Shown here: positions 2,213 through 33,024 of the stretch, piece after piece
Numbering within the stretch: position 1 is the stretch's first letter
How the letters are laid out: each line of letters begins with the position of its first letter
NCBI GenBank assembly: GCA_050010195.1
Contig: JBEKLM010000008.1
Coordinates: 7,843-71,842, forward strand
DNA from: Verrucomicrobiia bacterium
Lineage (GTDB): Bacteria > Verrucomicrobiota > Verrucomicrobiia > Palsa-1439
Length of the DNA stretch: 64,000 nucleotides
Direction of reading: 5' to 3'
Program-made: the position numbers and the translations under genes
Notes under the pieces: model-generated
What the model was told of the DNA's origin: nothing
Seen by the model: only the letters and a program-made list of their open reading frames with translations
The model's database searches: none

Positions 2213-3223
2213 ATGGCAAGCGAAACACTGCACTTCGACAATGCGCGGCAAGCGCAGTCCCTGTACGCCAGCGAACCCAAGAACCTCCGGCTCGTTGAAG
2301 ACCTGCTCAATTTAAAAGTGACCGCCCGCGACGGTTGGATCAACGTCGAAGGGTCCGTCGAAGACATCGCGCGGGCGAAGTCGCTGTTTACCGAACTGCA
2401 CCAGGCCGTGTCCCACGGCACGGTGATTCGTCGGCAGGAATTCAGCCGGGCGGTCAGCGCGATCTCCCGCGGTGAGGCGCTGAAGATGCAGGAACTGCAC
2501 GAAGGCCGCGTGGATGTTTCCACACGCAAGCGGCCGATCATCCCGAAAACGCAGGGGCAGAATCGTTATCTCGAAGCGATCCGCAAGAACGACATCGTGA
2601 TCGGCATTGGTCCGGCGGGCACGGGCAAGACGTACCTGGCGATGGCGATGGCGGTGCACGCGCTGCGCAGCGACCGCGTGGGACGAATTATTTTGTGCCG
2701 GCCGGCGGTCGAGGCGGGCGAGGCGCTCGGATTCCTGCCGGGGACGTTGGAAGAGAAGGTCAGCCCGTATCTGCGGCCCTTGTACGACGCGTTGTACGAC
2801 ATGATGGACCCCGACGAGATCCAGCGGCACATGGAGCGGGGCGTGATTGAAATCGCGCCGTTGGCGTATATGCGCGGGCGCACGCTGAACAATGCGTATG
2901 TGATCCTGGACGAGGCACAGAACACGACCAGCGAGCAGATGCTGATGTTCCTGACGCGGATGGGATTCGATTCCAAGGTGGTGATCACCGGCGACATCAC
3001 ACAGGTGGACCTGCCCGGGCACAAGATGTCAGGGCTGATCGAAATCCAGGGCATTCTGCAGGAAATTCCCGGCTTGGAAATCGTCTACTTTGACGAGCAC
3101 GACGTGGTCCGCCACGAACTGGTGCAGAAGATCATCTCCGCATATTCGAAGTTCAAAGAGGAACGGGAACGCCGCCGCCAGGAATCCGCGGCGAACGGCA
3201 ACGGCAGACCGCACGCGGCATGA
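2213..3223 (+). CDS. ybeZ: PhoH-like ATPase (YbeZ family)
   Basis: IVIGIGPAGTGKTYLAMAMAV Walker A and PhoH-family conservation. The stop overlaps the ybeY start. Confidence 0.9.
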   Translation: MASETLHFDNARQAQSLYASEPKNLRLVEDLLNLKVTARDGWINVEGSVEDIARAKSLFTELHQAVSHGTVIRRQEFSRAVSAISRGEALKMQELHEGRVDVSTRKRPIIPKTQGQNRYLEAIRKNDIVIGIGPAGTGKTYLAMAMAVHALRSDRVGRIILCRPAVEAGEALGFLPGTLEEKVSPYLRPLYDALYDMMDPDEIQRHMERGVIEIAPLAYMRGRTLNNAYVILDEAQNTTSEQMLMFLTRMGFDSKVVITGDITQVDLPGHKMSGLIEIQGILQEIPGLEIVYFDEHDVVRHELVQKIISAYSKFKEERERRRQESAANGNGRPHAA

Positions 3224-3675
3224 TCCCCGACGGCACGGGGGAGCGGGTCGCGGTCACCAATCGCCAGCGCCGGTTGAAAATCAATACGCGCCTGCTCGCG
3301 GAGATCGCGGAACGCGCCCTGGAACAGGTTGGCGACAAGCCGTTCCATCTCGGGATCGTGCTGGTTGACGATGCGGCGATGGCGAAGCTCAATGCGCAAT
3401 ACCACAACACGCCGGGCGCAACGGACATCCTGAGTTTTGATTACGGTGAAGGCCAGGGCGAACTGATCATTTCGGTGGAACACGCCGTGGCGCAGGCCAG
3501 ACAGTACCGTACGACACCGGCGCAGGAACTTGTTTTGTACATGGTGCACGGTATGCTCCATCTCCACGGGTACAACGACCGCACACCGCCCCAGCGTCGA
3601 CGGATGCGCGCGGCGGAGCGGCGGTTGGTGTCACGGTTGTGTAAACGTTTTGAGTTGAAGGAGTTGATTTTGTAG
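3220..3675 (+). CDS. ybeY: Endoribonuclease YbeY (rRNA maturation factor)
   Basis: HGMLHLHGYND metal-binding motif. The 151-aa size and phoH-ybeY synteny fit. Confidence 0.9.
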   Translation: MIPDGTGERVAVTNRQRRLKINTRLLAEIAERALEQVGDKPFHLGIVLVDDAAMAKLNAQYHNTPGATDILSFDYGEGQGELIISVEHAVAQARQYRTTPAQELVLYMVHGMLHLHGYNDRTPPQRRRMRAAERRLVSRLCKRFELKELIL

Positions 3676-3715
3676 CAAACTTACAAGCGGTTGTGGGTCG
3701 CTGAGGCCATTTTTA

Positions 3716-3744
3716 TTGACTTTTAGGACATAGGGGTGTCTAAT
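3716..3744 (+). promoter_or_regulatory. Sigma70-like promoter candidate (TTGACT-17-TCTAAT) in an AT-rich gap upstream of the secreted EEP-PKD gene
   Basis: Read directly: ttgact tttaggacataggggtg tctaat. The hexamers sit in a partial inverted repeat (ttgact…agtcaa). Confidence 0.35.
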
Positions 3745-3800
3745 AAAACGTTTTAGTCAAAAATCAAATAAAGGGTGACGTTTGCCAGCAGGGGAGACCA

Positions 3801-6317
3801 ATGAATAGAACACGCTTCATGAAGAGCGCCGCAATCCGCAGGTGTTTGAGTGGCATGGCTTTCTGGGTAGTCGGCAGTATCATGGCGGTGGCTTCCGCCC
3901 AAACCACCCGAACAGTCCGTGTCGTTGAGTACAATATCCAGGCCGACACTACTTATACCATTCCGACGTGTGGCTTGATCGTTCCCTTCACTGGCACCGG
4001 CGGAAGTTTCACGACCAGCTGCGGCGGCAGTGCGACCACGACGAATGGCGGCGTGCTCGAAGGGATTGGCGAAGAGATTATAAACGGCGATCCGGCCCAG
4101 CCGATCGACATTCTGGCGTTGAATGAGACGACCAGTAACACGACCACCGTCCAACCGATCGTGAACGGGTTAAACGCATTCTACTTATACTACAATAGCA
4201 TATGCTATACGAATCATCCCGCCGGGTATGCGATGAGCACGTATCAGGCAACGGAAAGCGGCGGCAGCCCCAGCTCTGGGAACGGGCCCAACGCCCTGGT
4301 GTACAACACCAACACGCTCCAGCTTCTGGCCTCGGTCCCGGTGGATCCGCCGGGCGGCACCGGCAACCTGGGTTCCACCAGCGGCGAGTATCGCGAGGTG
4401 ATGCGGTACGAGTTTGCGCCGGCCGGTGTAACGCCCGGGACGAACAATGAGTTTTACGTCTACGTGAGCCACTACAAGGCGAGCTCGGGTAGCAGCGACG
4501 ACAAAGCTCGCTTCGGTGAGGCCAGCATCATCCGCAGTAACGAATACCTCAACTTACCCGCCAATGCCCGGGTGCTGTACGTGGGTGACTACAATCCCGA
4601 CGATAACAGCGGCGAAGCCGGCTACCAGACCATTTGCTCCAACGGCGTACCCGGCATTGCCAACTCTGCGACAGGGCAGGGCCAGGGAGTCGACCCCCTC
4701 AATATTCTGTGGACTCCGTACACAAGCGCGTCGCCCAACATTAATTGGAGTGTGAGTACGACCAATACAAATATCCTGTTTATGATGAGCGAGGAGTCCT
4801 ACGAGCTCCGGTACCGCGACGATCTCCAGGTTATGACGAGCAATGTGTACTATGACGTGGCCGGTGGTTTCCAGTATGTACCGGGAACCTACCACTCGTT
4901 CGGCAACAATGGCTCGTTCACCTGGGGAACCAGCGTGAACAGTGGTGGCAACACCGCCCTGAGCGATCTGGACACGAATCTGACGAAAGTTACCGGTCTT
5001 TCCGCCGCCGTGCTGTTGGAGGACCTTACCGGTGCCAGCGACCACCTGCCCACTGTGGCCGATTACACCATCCCCATCCCACTTTCCGTGACGGCGCCGG
5101 TAGCCAGTTTCACAAATAATCCCGCCAGCGGGCCGGTGCCATTGACCGTGCACTTTTACGACACCTCGACGGGCTCGCCCACGAGTTGGAGTTGGACGTT
5201 TGGTGATGGCAGCGGCACGTCAACGTCGCAGAACCCGAACTATACATACAACTATCCGGGTTCTTACGTGGTGACGCAGATTGTGGCCAACGCGAGCGGA
5301 TCCAGCACCAATCACAGCACGATCACGGCGTCCTGCCCGGCGATCACATTGTCACCAGCCGCCGGCGCCTTGACGGCCGGAACGGTGGGCACGGCGTACA
5401 GCCAGACGATCACGGCCAGCGGTGGGACTGGACCGTACACCTACGCCGTAACGGCGGGCTCGTTGACGGGCTCGGGTCTGAGTTTGTCATCGGCGGGCAC
5501 GCTCTCCGGTGCGTCCCCGGTGGCGGGCACGTACACGTTTACAGTCACGGCGACGGACACCAACAACTGCACGGGCAGCGCGGCCTACACATTGACCGTG
5601 GGTTGCCCGACGATCACATTGTCACCCAATGGAGCGAATCCGACGGCGTTGCCCGGCGGGACGGAGGGCACAGCGTACAACAGCCAGACGATCACGGCCA
5701 GCGGTGGGACTGGACCGTACACCTACGCCGTAACGGCGGGCTCGTTGGCGGGCTCGGGCCTGAGTTTGTCATCGGCGGGCGTTCTGTCCGGTCCGTCCCC
5801 GGTGGCGGGCACGTACACGTTTACAGTCACGGCGACGGACACCAACAACTGCACGAGCAGTCAAGCGTACAGCGTGACGGTGCAGACGCAATTCGGGTCG
5901 TGGGAGCAGTTCTACGACCTCAGCGGCACGTTGAGTGGTGGGAATGCCTCCTACACGGGCGACGGCATGAGCAACACCAACAAGTTCATGGCGGGCTTCA
6001 ATCCCACCAATGCGGCAGCGTACCTGCACGTCATCAGTATCGTGGAGTCGGTGGCGGGCAATACCAACGTCGTGGTGACGTACCTCGGCGCCAACGGGGA
6101 TAACACCTACGTGCCGGGGATTGCGTCACGGACCAACGTGCTGGATTACATGACCGGTGACGCTAACGGCAGCTACACGAATGGCGGTTGGCAGGACACC
6201 GGCCAGACCAATATTCTCAGTGGCGGGAACGGGTCCGGCATTGTCACCAACATGACGGACTCGAATGTGACGGCGAGTCCCAACTTGTATTACCGCGTGC
6301 GCGTGTTGTTGCCATAA
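3801..6317 (+). CDS. Secreted multidomain protein: endonuclease/exonuclease/phosphatase (EEP) domain, PKD domain, two putative-Ig (He_PIG) repeats and an uncharacterised ~125-aa C-terminal domain
   Basis: Signal peptide. EEP motifs DILALNE … SDHLPTVADY. PKD: PLTVHFYDTSTGSPTSWSWTFGDGSGTS. Two tandem repeats match the He_PIG consensus (…TAYSQTITASGGTGPYTYAVTAGSL…TYTFTVTATDTNNCT…). The C-terminal domain is shared with the next gene. Confidence 0.85.
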   Translation: MNRTRFMKSAAIRRCLSGMAFWVVGSIMAVASAQTTRTVRVVEYNIQADTTYTIPTCGLIVPFTGTGGSFTTSCGGSATTTNGGVLEGIGEEIINGDPAQPIDILALNETTSNTTTVQPIVNGLNAFYLYYNSICYTNHPAGYAMSTYQATESGGSPSSGNGPNALVYNTNTLQLLASVPVDPPGGTGNLGSTSGEYREVMRYEFAPAGVTPGTNNEFYVYVSHYKASSGSSDDKARFGEASIIRSNEYLNLPANARVLYVGDYNPDDNSGEAGYQTICSNGVPGIANSATGQGQGVDPLNILWTPYTSASPNINWSVSTTNTNILFMMSEESYELRYRDDLQVMTSNVYYDVAGGFQYVPGTYHSFGNNGSFTWGTSVNSGGNTALSDLDTNLTKVTGLSAAVLLEDLTGASDHLPTVADYTIPIPLSVTAPVASFTNNPASGPVPLTVHFYDTSTGSPTSWSWTFGDGSGTSTSQNPNYTYNYPGSYVVTQIVANASGSSTNHSTITASCPAITLSPAAGALTAGTVGTAYSQTITASGGTGPYTYAVTAGSLTGSGLSLSSAGTLSGASPVAGTYTFTVTATDTNNCTGSAAYTLTVGCPTITLSPNGANPTALPGGTEGTAYNSQTITASGGTGPYTYAVTAGSLAGSGLSLSSAGVLSGPSPVAGTYTFTVTATDTNNCTSSQAYSVTVQTQFGSWEQFYDLSGTLSGGNASYTGDGMSNTNKFMAGFNPTNAAAYLHVISIVESVAGNTNVVVTYLGANGDNTYVPGIASRTNVLDYMTGDANGSYTNGGWQDTGQTNILSGGNGSGIVTNMTDSNVTASPNLYYRVRVLLP

Positions 6318-26545: not shown

Positions 26546-27331
26546 TCACGCTCTTACCGGCGGACAAATCCCGTTCGGCGAGTTCCGCACGAATTCGATA
26601 AACTCCCGCGCTTCGGACGTGGTGAACGCCCCGTCCCGTGACGCTTCCGCCAACGCTTGTGTGCCGTTCATCCCCGAGAGGTAGAATAGCTGGTAAAGCT
26701 TTTTCAGTTCCCCCAGCGCTTCCCGGGAAATCTTCATCCGTCGCAGGCCGACCAGGTTCAACGCGTGGATCTCGTTGCGCTCCGCCGCCAGCGTGAACGG
26801 CGGCACGTCCATCGACACCCGCGCATTCCCGGAAAACATCGCCAGCCGTCCCACGTGCGTGAATTGGTGGATCACCACGCCACCCGAGATGAATGCGCGG
26901 TCGCCCACGTGCACGTGGCCCGCCACCAGCGCGCAATTGCAGATGATCACATTGTTGCCGATTACACAGTTGTGGCCAACATGCGCCGTGGCCATGATGT
27001 AACAATCGTTGCCGATGACCGTCGCGCTCTCGGGTTCCGTCCCGCGGTGGATGTTGCAGTACTCGCGGAACACGTTGCGGTCGCCGATGCGCAAGTACGT
27101 CCGCCGTGACCGGTCAAACTTCAAATCCTGCGGTTCATGCCCGATCACCGCGCCCATGTGGATTTCGTTGTCGCGTCCGATCTCCGTGTGGCCTGTCAGA
27201 TACGCATTTGCCCAAATCCGCGTTCCCGCACCGACCTTCACGTGCTCCTCGATGACCACATTCGGCCCCACCTCGACGCTCGAATCGAGTTGCGCCTTCG
27301 GACTGATAATGGCTGTCGGATGAATCGACAT
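26546..27331 (-). CDS. lpxA: Acyl-ACP–UDP-N-acetylglucosamine O-acyltransferase LpxA
   Basis: Left-handed beta-helix hexapeptide repeats and LpxA N-terminal conservation (MSIHPTAIISPKAQL…). Confidence 0.9.
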   Translation of the reverse strand: MSIHPTAIISPKAQLDSSVEVGPNVVIEEHVKVGAGTRIWANAYLTGHTEIGRDNEIHMGAVIGHEPQDLKFDRSRRTYLRIGDRNVFREYCNIHRGTEPESATVIGNDCYIMATAHVGHNCVIGNNVIICNCALVAGHVHVGDRAFISGGVVIHQFTHVGRLAMFSGNARVSMDVPPFTLAAERNEIHALNLVGLRRMKISREALGELKKLYQLFYLSGMNGTQALAEASRDGAFTTSEAREFIEFVRNSPNGICPPVRA

Positions 27332-27370: not shown

Positions 27371-28564
27371 TCAGACTTTCTTGACCGATGACAGAACTTT
27401 GTAGCCGTGATCCTCGCATTCGACGTGGAAACCGCCAAACCAATCTCGGATCGCGTTCTCGTACGGCAAGCGAACGTTCGCCACAAGATAGAACCGTCCA
27501 CCGGGCTTCAACACTTCCCAGGCATCGCGGATGAATTGGTGCGCGATGTCGAACTCCGCGCGTCGTCCCACGTGAAACGGTGGATTGGTGACCACGACAT
27601 CGAAGGCCGACGTTTTCACCGCACTTCCTGCGTCACTGGGCAGGACCGTGCAATTGGTCAGCGCGCTGGCCTCGACCGATCGCGTTGCCGAGCGAATGGC
27701 TTCCGCATCGCTGTCGAGTAGGACCACGTTTCCTCGCACCGCCATCTTCGCGGCCATGAGTCCAACAATTCCATTGCCACACCCGAGATCCAGCACCGAG
27801 TCATTGGGTTCGATTCGCATTCGTTCCACCAACAATCGCGTGCCGTCATCGAGCCGGTCCCAGGCGAATACCCCGGTGCGGGAGTAAACGGTCACGGAGT
27901 TTTCCCCGATCTCCACGGGAAACTCCAGAAACGCCTGATGGTCGAGCCACTTGACGTCAAACGCGCTGGAATCAACGGGGGACGAAGTCTTCTTTTCCGA
28001 GCGGGCAATCCGATGTCCGCCTCCGTACCCCACGATCGTTGCATTGCCGAAAAGCTGCCCCATCAGTTCAATCGCAGGCTTGATCCCTTCCCGATTGGCG
28101 CCCGCCACGTAGCACGCCCCGCCAACCCGCAGCGCGTGGAATCCATCCCAGAGCAATTGCAACAAGGGAAGCCGTCCCTTGGGCAACCGGATCGCGACGC
28201 AATCCACCGGCTCACGTGACGAGAGACCGCACAAGCCATTGGAGAAATGCACCTCAACATTCTTCAACTGGTTGGCCTCAACCGTCTGCCGCGCGGCCAG
28301 CACATTGACCAGGTTCCGGTCCGTCATGATGACCGTGACACCGCTGGCGGTCATCGCCAGCGCTGCACCCGCCAATCCGGCCCCGGCGTTCAAGTGCAGC
28401 ACGGTTGAATCTTGAGTGATATCGACATGCTCCGCCAGCAACATCAAAGCGGGATCGGGAGCGTCCGAACAAGAGGCCCCGGGTTTCGAGACGAGCTTCA
28501 CGACGCGCTGACGCACCGTTACGTCAACCTGTCTCCACGAGTAATACTGTGATTCTTCCTTCAA
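27371..28564 (-). CDS. rRNA (guanine-N2)-methyltransferase, RsmC/RlmG-like (two tandem MTase-like domains)
   Basis: VLDLGCGNGIVG and the NPPFH motif (VVTNPPFHVG), with an N-terminal degenerate MTase domain. Confidence 0.8.
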   Translation of the reverse strand: MKEESQYYSWRQVDVTVRQRVVKLVSKPGASCSDAPDPALMLLAEHVDITQDSTVLHLNAGAGLAGAALAMTASGVTVIMTDRNLVNVLAARQTVEANQLKNVEVHFSNGLCGLSSREPVDCVAIRLPKGRLPLLQLLWDGFHALRVGGACYVAGANREGIKPAIELMGQLFGNATIVGYGGGHRIARSEKKTSSPVDSSAFDVKWLDHQAFLEFPVEIGENSVTVYSRTGVFAWDRLDDGTRLLVERMRIEPNDSVLDLGCGNGIVGLMAAKMAVRGNVVLLDSDAEAIRSATRSVEASALTNCTVLPSDAGSAVKTSAFDVVVTNPPFHVGRRAEFDIAHQFIRDAWEVLKPGGRFYLVANVRLPYENAIRDWFGGFHVECEDHGYKVLSSVKKV

Positions 28565-28925: not shown

Positions 28926-30413
28926 TCAGTACTGCGGCACGTTCGGATCGATGCGCTCAGCCCAGGCGTTGATACCACCGGCGACGTTCTTGAGTTTGCC
29001 GTAGCCCTGCGATCGGAGAAATTTCAGCGCGCGACCGCTGCGCCCGCCGGACTTGCAATGTAGGACGATGAGCTTGTCCTTGGGCAGTTCCTGAAACCGT
29101 TGCGGTAATTCGGGTAACGGGAGCTTGACCGAGCCATCGATGGTGCAGATGGCGAACTCGTCGGGATTGCGGACATCGACGAGGACAAAATCGTCTCTGC
29201 GGTCGCGCATTTTCTTGAGCGTCTCCACGCTGATGTCGTCGGGGCCAAGGCCTTCGTCTTTCGTTTCCACAATCGAATCTCCTGATGAACCGCCGTCCTC
29301 GCCGCGGCCAATGCCGCAGAATTGGTTGTAATCGATCAGTTTGGTCACGGTCGGATTTTTGCCGCACACAGGGCAGTTCGGATCGCGCGGAATTTTGTAC
29401 TCGCGGAAACTCATGTCCATCGCGTCAAACCGCAGTAATCGGCCCATCAGCGGTTTGCCCTTGCCGATAATGAGCTTGACCGCCTCGTTGGCCTGAATGT
29501 TGCCGATGATGCCGCAAATGACGCCGAGCACGCCGCCTTCCGCGCAACTCGGCACGAGGCCGGGCGGCGGCGGTTCGGGATACCAGCAACGGTAGCACGG
29601 CCCGCCGAGATGCGGCGCGAACACGCTGGCCATGCCTTCCCAGCGGAAAATCGAGCCGTACACGTTCGGCTTCTTCAGCATCACACAGGCGTCATTGACC
29701 AGATACCGCGTCGGAAAATTGTCCGTGCCGTCCAGGACGAGATCGTAATCCTTGATGATGTCGAGCGCGTTGTCGCTGGTGATCTTGACGGGGTAGGGGA
29801 TGAAATTCAGGTTCGGGTTAATCGCCTTGAGTTTTTCCTCGGCGCTCTTGAGCTTGTGTTTGCCCACGTCGCCCGTGAAATGAATAATCTGGCGCTGGAG
29901 ATTGCTGAAATCGACCGTGTCGAACTCGACCATGCCAATCGTGCCCACGCCCGCCGCCGTGAGATACAACGCAATTGGCGAACCGAGTCCACCCGAGCCG
30001 ATGAGCAGCACCTTCGCCGCCTTGATCCGCTCCTGCCCTTCGACGCCAACTTCCGGCAGAATCAAATGACGCGAGTAGCGTTTGATTTCTTCATTCGTCA
30101 GCTTCGCGCGGTCTTTGATGATCGGATCGAGTTTCGCGAGGTTCCCGCCCGCAATCGACGGCACAATCGAGATTTCGTCGCCTTCGTTGACCTGAGCATC
30201 GTCGCCTTTGGCGCGGATGTCCTCGTCGTTGACGTACACCCGCACGAAATTGCGCAGTTTGCCGTCGTCGCTGTAGAGATGCGGACGCAGTTGCGCGTGC
30301 TCGGTGGTCAGGTTGCCCAGCACTTCGCTGATCGTCCCGCCGGGCACTTCGACCGTCGCCTGCCCATTGGCAAAACGCCGGAGGGCTGTTGGTATCGTGA
30401 CTTTAATTGCCAT
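28926..30413 (-). CDS. Tripartite fusion: ThiS/MoaD/CysO-like sulfur-carrier domain (ending GG), then MoeB/ThiF/MoeZ E1-like adenylyltransferase, then a rhodanese domain
   Basis: N-terminal ubiquitin-like domain ending …IVPSIAGG. E1 motifs LLIGSGGLGSPIALYL and CxxC…CPVCG. C-terminal rhodanese active site LHCKSGGRSG. Confidence 0.85.
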   Translation of the reverse strand: MAIKVTIPTALRRFANGQATVEVPGGTISEVLGNLTTEHAQLRPHLYSDDGKLRNFVRVYVNDEDIRAKGDDAQVNEGDEISIVPSIAGGNLAKLDPIIKDRAKLTNEEIKRYSRHLILPEVGVEGQERIKAAKVLLIGSGGLGSPIALYLTAAGVGTIGMVEFDTVDFSNLQRQIIHFTGDVGKHKLKSAEEKLKAINPNLNFIPYPVKITSDNALDIIKDYDLVLDGTDNFPTRYLVNDACVMLKKPNVYGSIFRWEGMASVFAPHLGGPCYRCWYPEPPPPGLVPSCAEGGVLGVICGIIGNIQANEAVKLIIGKGKPLMGRLLRFDAMDMSFREYKIPRDPNCPVCGKNPTVTKLIDYNQFCGIGRGEDGGSSGDSIVETKDEGLGPDDISVETLKKMRDRRDDFVLVDVRNPDEFAICTIDGSVKLPLPELPQRFQELPKDKLIVLHCKSGGRSGRALKFLRSQGYGKLKNVAGGINAWAERIDPNVPQY

Positions 30414-30462
30414 CGTGTTCTCCTGAATCAAATCCGCGGCCCGCGGTGGATAGTCTATCGCA

Positions 30463-30891
30463 TTACTCGGAAATTTCAACTGCCTCTTGGTCAAACGCCG
30501 AGCGGTCATCCCGCAACCGCCAGGAATTGGATTCGACCGCCTTGCCTTTCACGACCGAGACGATCAAGTACGAAAAATTCGGCCACGCGTGATCAAGGTC
30601 GAATTGCGACGGGCGCGCGGCCACATCCGGGTGCGAATGATAAATCCCCAGCACGTCCATCCCACGCTTGTCGGCCTCGCGCTCGATCTTCATATACACG
30701 AGCGGATCAATCAGGTATCGGTTGCGCGCACTCTCCCCACCAGAGGCGGGCAGGTCGGTGCGCCGGTTGTCTGCGGAGACAATTTCCGTAATCACACCGT
30801 CTTTGCCCAGCATCACACCGCACGCCTCGTTCGGATAACCTGATTCCAAATGCCTGTGAGTTTGATGCAGGAGTTGTTGGGAGAGTTTCAT
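30463..30891 (-). CDS. mec: JAMM/MPN+ metalloprotease (Mec-like)
   Basis: JAMM motif GIYHSHPDVAARPSQFD plus an upstream E. The position between cysM and the carrier-E1 gene matches the Mtb mec-cysO-cysM context. Confidence 0.8.
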   Translation of the reverse strand: MKLSQQLLHQTHRHLESGYPNEACGVMLGKDGVITEIVSADNRRTDLPASGGESARNRYLIDPLVYMKIEREADKRGMDVLGIYHSHPDVAARPSQFDLDHAWPNFSYLIVSVVKGKAVESNSWRLRDDRSAFDQEAVEISE

Positions 30892-30910
30892 CTGTGGTGA
30901 GCGTCTCCTG

Positions 30911-31008
30911 CCCCCTCACCTTGATCCTCTCCCCCGGAGGGGAGAGGAAACTGCTGCACGCTCGCCGGTCCCCTCTCCCCTTGAGGGAGAGGGTTAGGGT
31001 GAGGGGAC
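30911..31008. repeat. Compound palindromic element: an outer inverted repeat (ccccctcacc / ggtgagggg) enclosing two similar GC hairpins (cctctcccc-cgga-ggggagagg and ccctctccc-cttga-gggagaggg)
   Basis: Read directly in the 130-bp cysM–mec intergenic gap. It is transcribed within the operon. Confidence 0.55.
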
Positions 31009-31021
31009 AGCCTGTGTGTAG

Positions 31022-31960
31022 TCATGCCGCCTCCCAGAACTTCTCGCTTTGGTAGCGTGCCCCAGCATCGGGACAAATGGCAACGATCACGCCCTCCTGG
31101 ATGGTGGCCGCCACCTTGAGCGCGGCGCAAATGCCAGCACCCGCGCTCACGCCGACGTACAGACCTTCCTCGCGCGTCATGCGCCGGGCCATTTGCTGCG
31201 CGGCTTCGGTCGAGATCCCGACAATCTGGTCGGGGACCTTCGCATCGTACAACGCCGGGACATGCGAGGCCGTTTCCATGTGCTTGAGTCCTTCCAGGCC
31301 GTGAAATGGCCCTTCGGGTTGGATGGCAACGAGCTTGATGTCGCGATTGAATTCGCGGAGCCGTTGGCCCGTGCCCATCAACGTGCCGCTCGTGCCAAGC
31401 CCGGCGAGAAAATGCGTGATCTTGCCTTCGGTCTGCTGGATGATCTCCGGCCCCGTGGTTTCATAATGCGCGCGCGGGTTTTCGGGATTGCCGTATTGGT
31501 CGGGGTAAAAATACAGGTCGGGGTGCTCCTTGTACAGCCGCTGCGCCGCGTAGAACGCACCGTCACTGCCTTCCGCCGGGTCGGTAAGAACCACTTCCGC
31601 GCCGTACGCCTTCAGGAGTTTCTTGCGCTCGGGACTGGCATTCGCCGGCATCAGCAACTTGCAGCGGTAGCCACGCCGCGCGGCGATCATGGCATACGCA
31701 ATGCCCGTGTTGCCGCTGGTGGCATCGAGGATGGCTTTCTCTGGCGCAAGCTGGCCGGACACTTCCGCGGCGCGAATCATGCGGTACGCGGGCCGGTCCT
31801 TCACGGAACCACCGGGATTGTACCACTCCGCCTTGGCGAGGATGCGAACGCGGGGGAATTCATGCCCGATGCGCAGCAAGGGAATCAGCGGCGTGCTGCC
31901 AATCGTGCGCAACAACGCGTCGGAATCCGACGACGGCAGGAGCGAGACTTCACCCATCAT
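31022..31960 (-). CDS. cysM: Cysteine synthase of the CysM/CysK PLP-dependent family, likely CysO-thiocarboxylate-dependent
   Basis: PLP-lysine motif GGSVKDRPAYRMI and glycine-rich loop GTSGTLMGTG. Synteny with mec and the CysO-like carrier. Confidence 0.85.
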   Translation of the reverse strand: MMGEVSLLPSSDSDALLRTIGSTPLIPLLRIGHEFPRVRILAKAEWYNPGGSVKDRPAYRMIRAAEVSGQLAPEKAILDATSGNTGIAYAMIAARRGYRCKLLMPANASPERKKLLKAYGAEVVLTDPAEGSDGAFYAAQRLYKEHPDLYFYPDQYGNPENPRAHYETTGPEIIQQTEGKITHFLAGLGTSGTLMGTGQRLREFNRDIKLVAIQPEGPFHGLEGLKHMETASHVPALYDAKVPDQIVGISTEAAQQMARRMTREEGLYVGVSAGAGICAALKVAATIQEGVIVAICPDAGARYQSEKFWEAA

Positions 31961-32817
31961 CAGGCCGGTTTATCGCCCTTGACAATCGGCGCGTTGACCA
32001 AATTGCCCCACTCGGTCCACGAACCATCGTAGTTTCTCACGCTCGGGTAGCCCAGTAGATATTTCAACACAAACCACGTGTGCGCCGACCGCTCGCCGAT
32101 CCGGCAGTAGGCGATGGTATCATCGTACGGGGTGACCCCGCGGCCGCGGTACAATTCCAACAACGCGTCGTGGTCTTTGAATGTGCCGTCTTCGTTGACC
32201 GCCTGCGCCCAGGGAACGTTCAACGCTGTGGGTATGTGACCGCCGCGTTGCGCGGTTTCCGTCATTCCCGGCGGAGCAATCACCTTGCCGGTGTACTCAT
32301 CAGGCGAGCGCACGTCCACGAGATTGAATTTGCTCTCCTTGATCGCCAGCGCCACGTCATCGCGAAACGCGCGCAGAGATCCATCTGCCGGGCGGGCGCG
32401 GTAGCTGGTCGCCGGGTATTTGGGCACATCCCTGGTGACCGCGCGGTTCTCGGCGAGCCACTTCTTGCGTCCGCCGTTCATGATGCAGGCGGCGCGGTGG
32501 CCGTACAGTTTCAATTGCCAAAACGCGTAGCACGCGAACCAGTTGTTGTTGTCCCCGTACAGGACGACGGTTGTATCCGCTGCGATACCGGACTCGCCCA
32601 TCAACTTCTCGAAAGCTTCCTCGGTCAGCACGTCGCGGCGGATGTTGTCGCAGAGCTGGCTTTGCCAGTTCCAGGCGATGGCGCCCGCAATGTGACCTTG
32701 CTCGTAGGCCGACGTGTCGACGTCCACTTCGACGAGGCGCACATTCGCGTCGCCCTTGTGGTGTTCAACCCAATCGGTTGAAACAAGAACATCTGGATGT
32801 GAATACGGTTTCGTCAT
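31960..32817 (-). CDS. sseA: 3-mercaptopyruvate/thiosulfate sulfurtransferase (tandem rhodanese)
   Basis: Two rhodanese domains with a CRIGERS active-site loop (…YCRIGERSAHTWF…). Confidence 0.85.
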   Translation of the reverse strand: MTKPYSHPDVLVSTDWVEHHKGDANVRLVEVDVDTSAYEQGHIAGAIAWNWQSQLCDNIRRDVLTEEAFEKLMGESGIAADTTVVLYGDNNNWFACYAFWQLKLYGHRAACIMNGGRKKWLAENRAVTRDVPKYPATSYRARPADGSLRAFRDDVALAIKESKFNLVDVRSPDEYTGKVIAPPGMTETAQRGGHIPTALNVPWAQAVNEDGTFKDHDALLELYRGRGVTPYDDTIAYCRIGERSAHTWFVLKYLLGYPSVRNYDGSWTEWGNLVNAPIVKGDKPA

Positions 32818-32948
32818 GGATCATGCCCTTTTATTTGGTGCTCTGAAACCAACTGTGAAACGTGCAACCCGCCAACACCAACGACATTATACCATGGAGA
32901 TGTGGTGGGGCAATCATGGTTTCGATAGCGAGGAGGCCATGTGAGGGT

Positions 32949-33024
32949 TGGTGGAGATGAGGGGATTTGAACCCCTGACCTCCTCGTTGCGAACGAGGCG
33001 CTCTCCCAACTGAGCTACATCCCC
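32949..33024 (-). tRNA. tRNA-Ala (anticodon CGC), CCA encoded
   Basis: The reverse complement reads GGGGATGTAGCTCAGTTGGGAGAGCGCCTCGTTCGCAACGAGGAGGTCAGGGGTTCAAATCCCCTCATCTCCACCA. It has the G3:U70 pair, the anticodon loop TT-CGC-AA and a GTTCAAATC T-loop. Confidence 0.95.

Follow-up and report, generated by a model that had tools for sequence, protein, structure and literature searches.

A carrier–E1–rhodanese fusion and its gene neighborhood

The 64,000-nucleotide stretch of Verrucomicrobiia DNA analyzed here (the window, 64 kb) bears on its minus strand a row of genes of the Mycobacterium tuberculosis CysO/CysM/Mec type, in which a ubiquitin-like sulfur carrier is encoded in one reading frame with an E1-type activating enzyme and a rhodanese. 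The gene order is tRNA-Ala(CGC), an SseA-type rhodanese gene, a cysM-like gene, a hairpin-forming spacer, a JAMM protease gene and the carrier-E1-rhodanese fusion gene, all on the same strand (domains were assigned by Pfam, the tRNA by ARAGORN). The M. tuberculosis-type gene set had been recognized in an earlier, sequence-only reading of this DNA, and the present analysis agrees: the carrier is nearest to CysO-type structures, and the CysM-like and JAMM genes adjoin it.

The open reading frame (ORF) of the fusion is listed as 30509..28926 (minus strand). However, homologues begin with MAIKV or MAITV, and an AGGAGA motif lies 7 nt upstream of an ATG at 30413; we therefore place the true start at 30413, the 32 codons upstream of which overlap the 3' end of the JAMM gene. 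From there, a single uninterrupted ORF (30413..28929, stop codon 28928..28926) encodes a protein of 495 residues. Three Pfam domains are found in it, all above their gathering scores: ThiS (PF02597, 47.2 versus 22.5 bits), ThiF (PF00899, 266.5 versus 28.1 bits) and Rhodanese (PF00581, 69.5 versus 22.2 bits). The carrier end, ...SIVPSIAGG, continues in frame as NLAKLDPII...RYSRHLIL (run-on into the E1, NLAKLDPIIKDRAKLTNEEIKRYSRHLIL), just as the sequence-only reading had described, and 405 residues follow the Gly-Gly (GG). No in-frame ATG, GTG or TTG occurs between GG and RYSRH and no stop codon lies between the domains, so that the carrier and E1 parts are not separately translatable.

The carrier domain (residues 1–90, 30144..30413) is a CysO-like β-grasp domain by its ThiS match and its PDB matches, with Gly89-Gly90 encoded at 30149..30144. 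In a phmmer search against the PDB, it matched 4n6e_B (E value 2.3e-19) and M. tuberculosis CysO (3dwg_C, E value 1.8e-15), while MoaD-like and SAMP structures were far weaker matches. Both top structures align with the domain end to end and finish at the aligned GG (residues 89–90), which answers the earlier suggestion to align it with CysO. Among 41 aligned fused homologues, P85, A88, G89 and G90 are invariant. The junction linker that follows, NLAKL (residues 91–95, 30129..30143), would begin at the predicted scissile bond, Gly90|Asn91. Standalone E1s of relatives begin with MEPIV.., which aligns to L95-D96-P97 of the fusion.

The MoeB/MoeZ-type adenylation domain (approximately residues 96–366, 29316..30128) contains RYSRH and GSGGLG motifs and two CxxC pairs (C273/C276 and C347/C350). 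In the 41 fused proteins, RYSRH, the nucleotide-binding glycines (GxGxxG), both CxxC zinc pairs, a loop cysteine (C290) and the rhodanese HCxxGxRS motif are all invariant. The best solved relatives of the E1 are Uba4 (PDB 6yub) and MoeB (1jw9), and ThiF structures match as well. Among NCBIfam models, the fusion reaches the cut-off of NF006444 (MoeB, 453.1 versus 449) and misses that of the MoeZ equivalog NF005902 (486.4 versus 647). Homologues of the fusion are publicly named "MoeB" or "adenylyltransferase/sulfurtransferase"; the former name arises because the fusion just clears a MoeB model and falls below the MoeZ model. A linker (residues 367–387, 29253..29315), variable among the fused proteins, leads to the C-terminal rhodanese (residues 388–495 plus stop, 28926..29252). 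Here, the CKSGGRSG string noted before is indeed part of an active-site loop, H452-C453-KSGGRS (LHCKSGGRSG), of which H452, C453, G456, R458 and S459 are invariant. An AlphaFold2 model shows three confident domains, with the β-grasp fold spanning residues 1–85; the predicted local distance difference test (pLDDT) score falls below 50 at residues 86–94 and 367–387. The low-pLDDT GG junction (residues 86–94) fits an exposed, flexible cleavage site, as far as the model can indicate.

The gene upstream of the fusion (30463..30891) encodes a JAMM/MPN+ zinc metalloprotease of 142 residues (Prok-JAB, PF14464, 88.4 bits versus a cut-off of 25). The HSH...S...D signature singled out previously is intact in it as E22 and H85-S-H87-x7-S95-x2-D98 (HSHPDVAARPSQFD at 30639..30598). 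Its closest PDB match is 2kcq_A (E value 3e-21), and a homologue search returned generic database names (M67, Mov34, "RPN8/RPN11") that are silent on orthology to Mec (Rv1334). The next gene (31022..31960) encodes a CysM-like, pyridoxal phosphate (PLP)-dependent cysteine synthase of 312 residues (Pfam PALP, 226 bits), which matches E. coli CysM (2v03, E value 4e-70) and M. tuberculosis CysM (3dwg_A, E value 5e-62) roughly equally. In addition, the operon contains a fourth gene that went beyond the sequence-only reading. This first gene of the operon (32817..31960) overlaps the cysM start by 1 nt and encodes a two-domain, SseA-like rhodanese of 285 residues, resembling thiosulfate or 3-mercaptopyruvate sulfurtransferases (two Pfam Rhodanese stretches; 117.9 against a cut-off of 250, and thus below it, for the NCBIfam 3-mercaptopyruvate sulfurtransferase model).

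The upstream boundary of the module is the tRNA-Ala(CGC) gene (32949..33024). Between it and the SseA-like gene lies the best match to a σ70-like promoter in the region (32886..32913, minus strand; 10 of 12 consensus positions with an extended −10 TG), a consensus match only, whose position fits a four-gene transcription unit. The 130-nt spacer from the cysM stop to the JAMM start (30892..31021, minus strand) forms one long nested hairpin (−77.9 kcal/mol, z = −5.35 versus shuffled sequences) composed of CCCTCTCCC/GGGAGAGGG-type palindromes. No second copy of the hairpin is present within the window; it could be an element resembling repetitive extragenic palindromes or miniature inverted-repeat transposable elements, or else an intra-operon RNA processing or attenuation signal. 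Directly downstream of the fusion (27371..28564, minus strand), a gene encodes a 397-residue protein with two methyltransferase small-domain (MTS, RsmC/RlmG-like) halves; relatives lack it at this position and carry other genes in the interval from moeZ to lpxA.

Conservation of the fusion and of the carrier precursor

To what extent the fusion is conserved can be seen at the protein and at the genome level. Among the 120 best matches from a collection of 5.8 billion proteins, 77 have the same three Pfam domains, at identities ranging from 97% (a Verrucomicrobiia metagenome-assembled genome) to about 58% (Bryobacteraceae and other Acidobacteriota); the 97%-identical protein is present on 4 contigs. 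A survey of one genome per species, using a profile that spans the junction, yielded at least 590 relatives (at least 600 stretches), the best 80 of which were analyzed as loci. All 80 match residues 1–133 contiguously. They are mostly from Acidobacteriota (Bryobacterales, Vicinamibacteria, Pyrinomonadaceae and Terriglobia), with further representatives from Verrucomicrobiia, Gemmatimonadota, Ignavibacteria, Kiritimatiellae and Rubrobacteraceae, besides a few labels that are probably mis-binned.

Carrier, E1 and rhodanese form one uninterrupted ORF in 69 of the 80 loci and are split in the other 11. The fusion thus recurs in orthologous loci, and the notion that separate carrier, E1 and rhodanese genes are the usual form does not hold in this clade. 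The Gly-Gly is present in every one of the 80 loci; neither a disrupting stop or frameshift in independent data nor orthologues devoid of GG, both of which had been named as findings that would speak against the fusion, were encountered. From GG to the conserved E1 N-terminus, the 69 fused loci have 6–28 residues of non-conserved sequence, and the residue directly after GG is Ser or Ala in 54 of the 80 loci. A JAMM gene is located upstream on the same strand in 79 loci and cysM upstream in 77.

The split loci (L006, L009, L024, L027, L035, L043, L049, L050, L055, L059 and L071; junction at about 6270–6300 in most) are informative with respect to the form in which the carrier is made. In none of the 11 does the standalone carrier end at GG. 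Instead, 1–8 residues follow, namely NGDR, V, R, REN, CSALNK, R, GQEM, AGHGRAL, LRGENIGD, AGNKRAR and VAVVR. In all 11, moreover, the E1 lies in the frame of the carrier, a position that chance alone would give in one third of loci (although not every lineage counts as independent), and the two are parted by one or two in-frame stops, a mixture of TAA, TAG and TGA. Because the E1 keeps the frame of the carrier, fused and split forms differ by point changes, an in-frame stop and a nearby Met. This pattern suggests repeated toggling between the forms by point mutation, and the fused and the tailed split forms appear to be interconvertible and functionally equivalent. Since split carriers never end at GG and fused ones continue into the E1, the carrier in this clade is, judging from these reading frames, always a precursor that requires trimming after GG. 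Because split loci produce carrier and E1 as separate proteins, cleavage of the fused form most probably leads to the same two products.

A coarser view of the wider family comes from the 150 representatives closest to the 90-residue carrier, of which 7 end at GG, 40 have 1–12 extra residues and 27 visibly run into an E1; this library lacks stop information and is rich in fragments and frameshifted calls, which makes it unfit for counting fused versus free carriers. Many standalone CysO-like carriers have short post-GG tails that start with, or are rich in, cysteine, again with ends that are uncertain on account of fragments. Such tails include CCCCCCL, CCVMTCGT, CCALI, ACACYCPCRMNA, C, CAT and, in the split locus L035, CSALNK (the other carriers are P0129, P0140, P0141, P0164, P0172, P0180, P0226, P0257 and P0266). 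They recall the GG-CF tail of QbsE and the natural substrate of Mec, carrier-GG-Cys.

In Verrucomicrobia, close E1-rhodanese relatives exist that are unfused and have no cysM, JAMM or carrier gene upstream (including P0035, P0037, P0052 and P0114; P0035 is 88% identical over the E1 part). They keep an lpxA-like gene downstream, as in the window (27331..26546), and an unfused moeZ locus, L081, has the same tRNA-Ala(CGC) upstream. The fused relatives L090–L093 show the gene order of the window, between BtpA/tRNA and lpxA, and L001, the closest relative among the genome matches listed (Verrucomicrobiia), shares the order with the sseA-like gene first. Because unfused and fused relatives share these flanks, the sseA-cysM-JAMM-carrier block occupies a defined chromosomal position in some relatives and is lacking there in others; wherever it occurs, it continues in frame into the resident moeZ. 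In a crude neighbor-joining tree of the E1-rhodanese parts (in which P0090 and P0109 are mislabelled as unfused), unfused forms branch at the base of the fused Verrucomicrobial clade as well as inside it, and the Acidobacterial fusions group apart in a clade of their own, a topology compatible with one or with two origins of the fusion. As the E1 persists without the module, it probably also serves other carriers, by analogy with MoeZR in mycobacteria.

At L081, a small GIY-YIG ORF (4506..4787, within 4423..4833) comes after the tRNA-Ala(CGC); on either side of it, at 4476 and 4811, lies a 23-nt direct repeat of the 3' end of the tRNA, which is single-copy in the window. The ORF looks like an insertion with target duplication. 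In L092 and L093, a GIY-YIG gene likewise separates the sseA-like gene from the tRNA region.

Proposed release and reuse of the carrier

From the architecture, conservation and gene context observed at these loci, we infer a series of catalytic steps. We consider it likely that the genes constitute a cysteine operon of the CysO/CysM/Mec/MoeZ type, in which the carrier is freed from its own E1 by the adjacent JAMM protease and in which the same protease acts as Mec. The starting point is the 495-residue polyprotein that the sequence encodes. Because adenylation requires a free glycine carboxylate, a cut of the fusion at Gly90|Asn91 has to precede it. The earlier argument that an internal GG cannot be adenylated, and that the carrier must be released, thus retains its force, as the GG is invariant, the linker variable and the split carriers tailed. 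The JAMM protease is the obvious candidate for this cut because the cut matches the Mec reaction, the hydrolysis of an amide after the last glycine of the carrier. It would recognize the β-grasp domain and hydrolyze the bond within the flexible junction, giving a carrier of about 9.6 kDa with a free Gly-Gly carboxylate and an E1-rhodanese of about 44 kDa. The E1 would then adenylate Gly90, and a persulfide on rhodanese Cys453, possibly loaded by the SseA-like enzyme, would turn the adenylate into a thiocarboxylate, as in the MoeZ and MoeB families. CysM might condense the thiocarboxylate with the PLP-bound aminoacrylate derived from O-phosphoserine or O-acetylserine, yielding carrier-Gly-Gly-Cys after an S-to-N acyl shift. 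In its Mec role, the same JAMM would finally cut after Gly90 once more, freeing cysteine and recycling the carrier. Maturation and turnover would thereby share one protease and one scissile position.

Several points weigh against this reading. JAMM cleavage of the 495-residue fusion is suggested by analogy (to QbsD/QbsE, CxnF/CxnE, DRJAMM, HvJAMM1 and MoaX), and the adjacency of the JAMM gene would be expected from a Mec role by itself, which is the main weakness. Indeed, M. tuberculosis has Mec alongside a CysO that ends in GG from the outset, so that adjacency does not discriminate. One locus, L036, has no JAMM gene in the 658 bp of upstream DNA present, and in L001 and L049 a gap of about 1.7–2 kb separates the JAMM gene from the fusion. 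The arrangement of the domains relative to one another in the AlphaFold2 model is of low confidence (predicted template modeling score 0.57). The PLP enzyme falls slightly under the NCBIfam cut-offs for cysKM (339.4 versus 344.15) and cysM (335.8 versus 394.2), and the assignment of O-phosphoserine or O-acetylserine and a protein thiocarboxylate as CysM substrates here is transferred from related enzymes.

It is conceivable, but in our view unlikely, that a different protease or route makes the cut after GG and that the adjacent JAMM serves solely as Mec, freeing cysteine from the carrier-cysteine adduct. Other proteases can make such cuts, given that in mycobacteria the cleavage of MoaX at its GG is attributed to an "as yet unidentified protease" (PMC4326299), and the established role of Mec suffices to account for the JAMM gene. 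In L001, furthermore, the JAMM and fusion genes are not co-transcribed, because a gene on the opposite strand lies between them (2378..3970 on the minus strand of that locus, coding for a 530-residue protein with two internal repeats). However, both reactions are the same chemistry, amide hydrolysis after the terminal Gly of the carrier; related JAMM proteases cut linear carrier fusions and tails, JAMM co-occurs in nearly all loci, and no other protease gene is conserved in the neighborhood of the 80 loci.

A more speculative idea, which we regard as rather doubtful, takes the uncleaved fusion for a self-blocked zymogen of a housekeeping MoeZ. The tethered β-grasp domain would fill the carrier site of the E1 without offering a carboxylate, and JAMM cleavage would gate all thiocarboxylate-dependent sulfur traffic, toward cysteine and possibly molybdopterin, thiamin and tRNA thiolation. 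In bacteria, such an arrangement would correspond to the processing of ubiquitin precursors, here serving as a regulatory switch, and the in-frame stop variants could be an evolutionary, or even a translational-readthrough, dial between the forms.

Alternatively, the β-grasp domain could be a permanent, uncleaved accessory domain of the E1 with a regulatory, docking or decoy function, the real carrier being encoded elsewhere. Iyer et al. argue in this sense for ubiquitin-like (Ubl)-ThiF proteins of thiamin operons, which co-occur with a separate ThiS (PMC1779556); Ubl-E1 fusions have been noted in archaea as well (PMC2948915), and with 64 kb of the genome visible, a carrier gene could lie at a distance. 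We nevertheless judge this option improbable. The domain is a close relative of CysO with the invariant PSIAGG tail that thiocarboxylation requires, no second CysO-like carrier was found within about 6 kb at any of the 80 loci or in the 64-kb window, and 11 lineages have the same domain as a standalone gene beside the E1, which argues that it functions as a free carrier. Thiamin genes are absent from the 80 loci and from the window.

We likewise give little credence to an operon that serves mainly another purpose than cysteine synthesis, with the thiocarboxylate passed to another acceptor (homocysteine/methionine, a thio-cofactor or a secondary metabolite) or with the carrier conjugated to proteins and the JAMM acting as a deconjugase. 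The scores of the PLP enzyme just below the CysM/CysK cut-offs would agree with such a role, as would the dual roles of MoeZR in mycobacteria (PMC3227635) and the speculation by Iyer et al. that JAB-associated systems conjugate Ubls to targets (PMC1779556). Yet the nearest structures to the PLP enzyme are those of genuine CysM proteins, that of M. tuberculosis among them, the carrier is closest to CysO, and the loci contain no E2-like, siderophore or homocysteine-pathway genes. Finally, a sequencing or assembly artefact (a lost stop or a frameshift), for which one might cite that a single base decides between the fused form and the split form with its in-frame stop, is excluded, because 69 independent assemblies from several phyla show this ORF without interruption, as do 77 of the 120 best protein clusters, near-identical copies on several contigs among them.

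Relation to known sulfur carriers and ubiquitin-like precursors

If release by the JAMM protease is correct, the fusion would be the first case on record of a ubiquitin-like sulfur carrier that is synthesized in a single chain with its own E1 and then freed by a deubiquitinase-type protease. It would offer a testable bacterial parallel to ubiquitin-precursor processing, and it implies that a single JAMM protease serves both for maturation of the carrier and for its recycling in each catalytic cycle. The fused form would also be the version of the CysO pathway that prevails in Acidobacteriota and Verrucomicrobiota, phyla abundant in soil, and its current names conceal a route of cysteine biosynthesis from metabolic reconstructions of uncultured soil bacteria. 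New in the present analysis are the corrected start codon, the fourth gene, the spread of the fusion, the rule that the carrier is always a precursor, and the module that is present or absent at the moeZ locus. A full-text literature search found no description of, or experiment on, a carrier-E1-rhodanese fusion.

The closest known system is the cysteine pathway of M. tuberculosis, where MoeZR adenylates and thiocarboxylates CysO, CysM adds the CysO thiocarboxylate to the aminoacrylate of O-phosphoserine, and the JAMM protease Mec hydrolyzes CysO-Cys (PMC3227635). Both systems have a GG-bearing β-grasp carrier, an E1 with a C-terminal rhodanese, a CysM-like enzyme and a JAMM protease, and in both carrier, CysM and JAMM are clustered. 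In M. tuberculosis, however, CysO is a separate protein of 93 residues that ends at GG and moeZ is unlinked, whereas here the carrier is joined to the E1, whose gene belongs to the operon, and an SseA-like rhodanese gene is present in addition. An operon type with ThiS/MoaD, E1-rhodanese, JAB and cysteine synthase genes, including one in Solibacter usitatus, was listed by Iyer, Burroughs and Aravind in 2006, who also proposed that JAB proteases cleave Ubl moieties fused to other proteins; the part of that paper available to us does not name a carrier-E1-rhodanese fusion (PMC1779556).

Trimming of carrier tails by JAMM proteases has been shown or proposed for QbsD/QbsE (thioquinolobactin) and CxnF/CxnE (chuangxinmycin). 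As here, residues follow the GG of these carriers and a JAMM gene is in the cluster; in those systems, the GG is shown or proposed to be exposed before adenylation by a MoeZ-type E1 (PMC5925218). The split relatives of the present fusion, with their tails of 1–8 residues, are exactly of the QbsE/QbsD type. HcyS/HcyD of Wolinella is another such pair of a carrier precursor and its trimming JAMM protease. In carriers of the QbsE/CxnE type, the tail is a disposable 1–10 residues, while the "tail" of the fusion is an entire E1-rhodanese of 405 residues.

Cleavage of a carrier from a larger partner is known from MoaD-MoaE fusions. MoaX of M. tuberculosis is cut at Gly82|Ser83 and needs this cleavage for activity, and the residue after GG in our loci, mostly Ser or Ala, resembles that at the MoaX site (PMC4326299). 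DRJAMM cleaves the MoaD-MoaE fusion DR2607 of Deinococcus (PMC8832034), and HvJAMM1 cleaves linear SAMP1-MoaE in Haloferax (PMC4443979). These proteins share with the carrier-E1-rhodanese fusion an N-terminal β-grasp carrier on a pathway enzyme; in them a cut after GG is required for activity, as predicted for the present fusion, and for DRJAMM and HvJAMM1 a JAMM protease makes it. They differ in that the partner, MoaE, is the downstream sulfur acceptor of the molybdopterin pathway, whereas here it is the upstream activating E1 and the pathway would lead to cysteine.

A β-grasp domain N-terminal to an E1-like enzyme is also present in the Ubl-ThiF proteins of thiamin operons (e.g. in Campylobacter jejuni) and in archaeal Ubl-E1-TBP proteins (PMC1779556; PMC2948915); Makarova and Koonin mention Ubl-E1 fusions in passing (2010; PMC2948915). 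According to Iyer et al., the Ubl of the thiamin proteins is distinct from ThiS, a standalone ThiS is present, a JAB protease is missing and a non-carrier role is proposed (PMC1779556). The domain fused here, by contrast, is CysO-like, is the only carrier found at the loci, keeps its GG and is accompanied by a JAMM protease.

Ubiquitin provides the most general parallel. Eukaryotes make ubiquitin in precursor form, as polyubiquitin and as ubiquitin-ribosomal protein fusions. In Caldiarchaeum, the ubiquitin precursor is processed by Rpn11 (PMC6043591). In both groups the Ubl is, as far as known, always translated as a precursor, and a deubiquitinase-type protease uncovers its C-terminal GG ahead of activation by the E1. 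Ubiquitin is then conjugated to proteins, whereas the carrier of the present fusion would be a sulfur carrier. To our knowledge, the fusion partner in ubiquitin precursors is never the E1. The carrier-E1-rhodanese fusion is thus a variant of known themes, the CysO pathway, JAMM-processed carrier precursors and JAMM-cleaved carrier-enzyme fusions, and the general idea behind it is not new.

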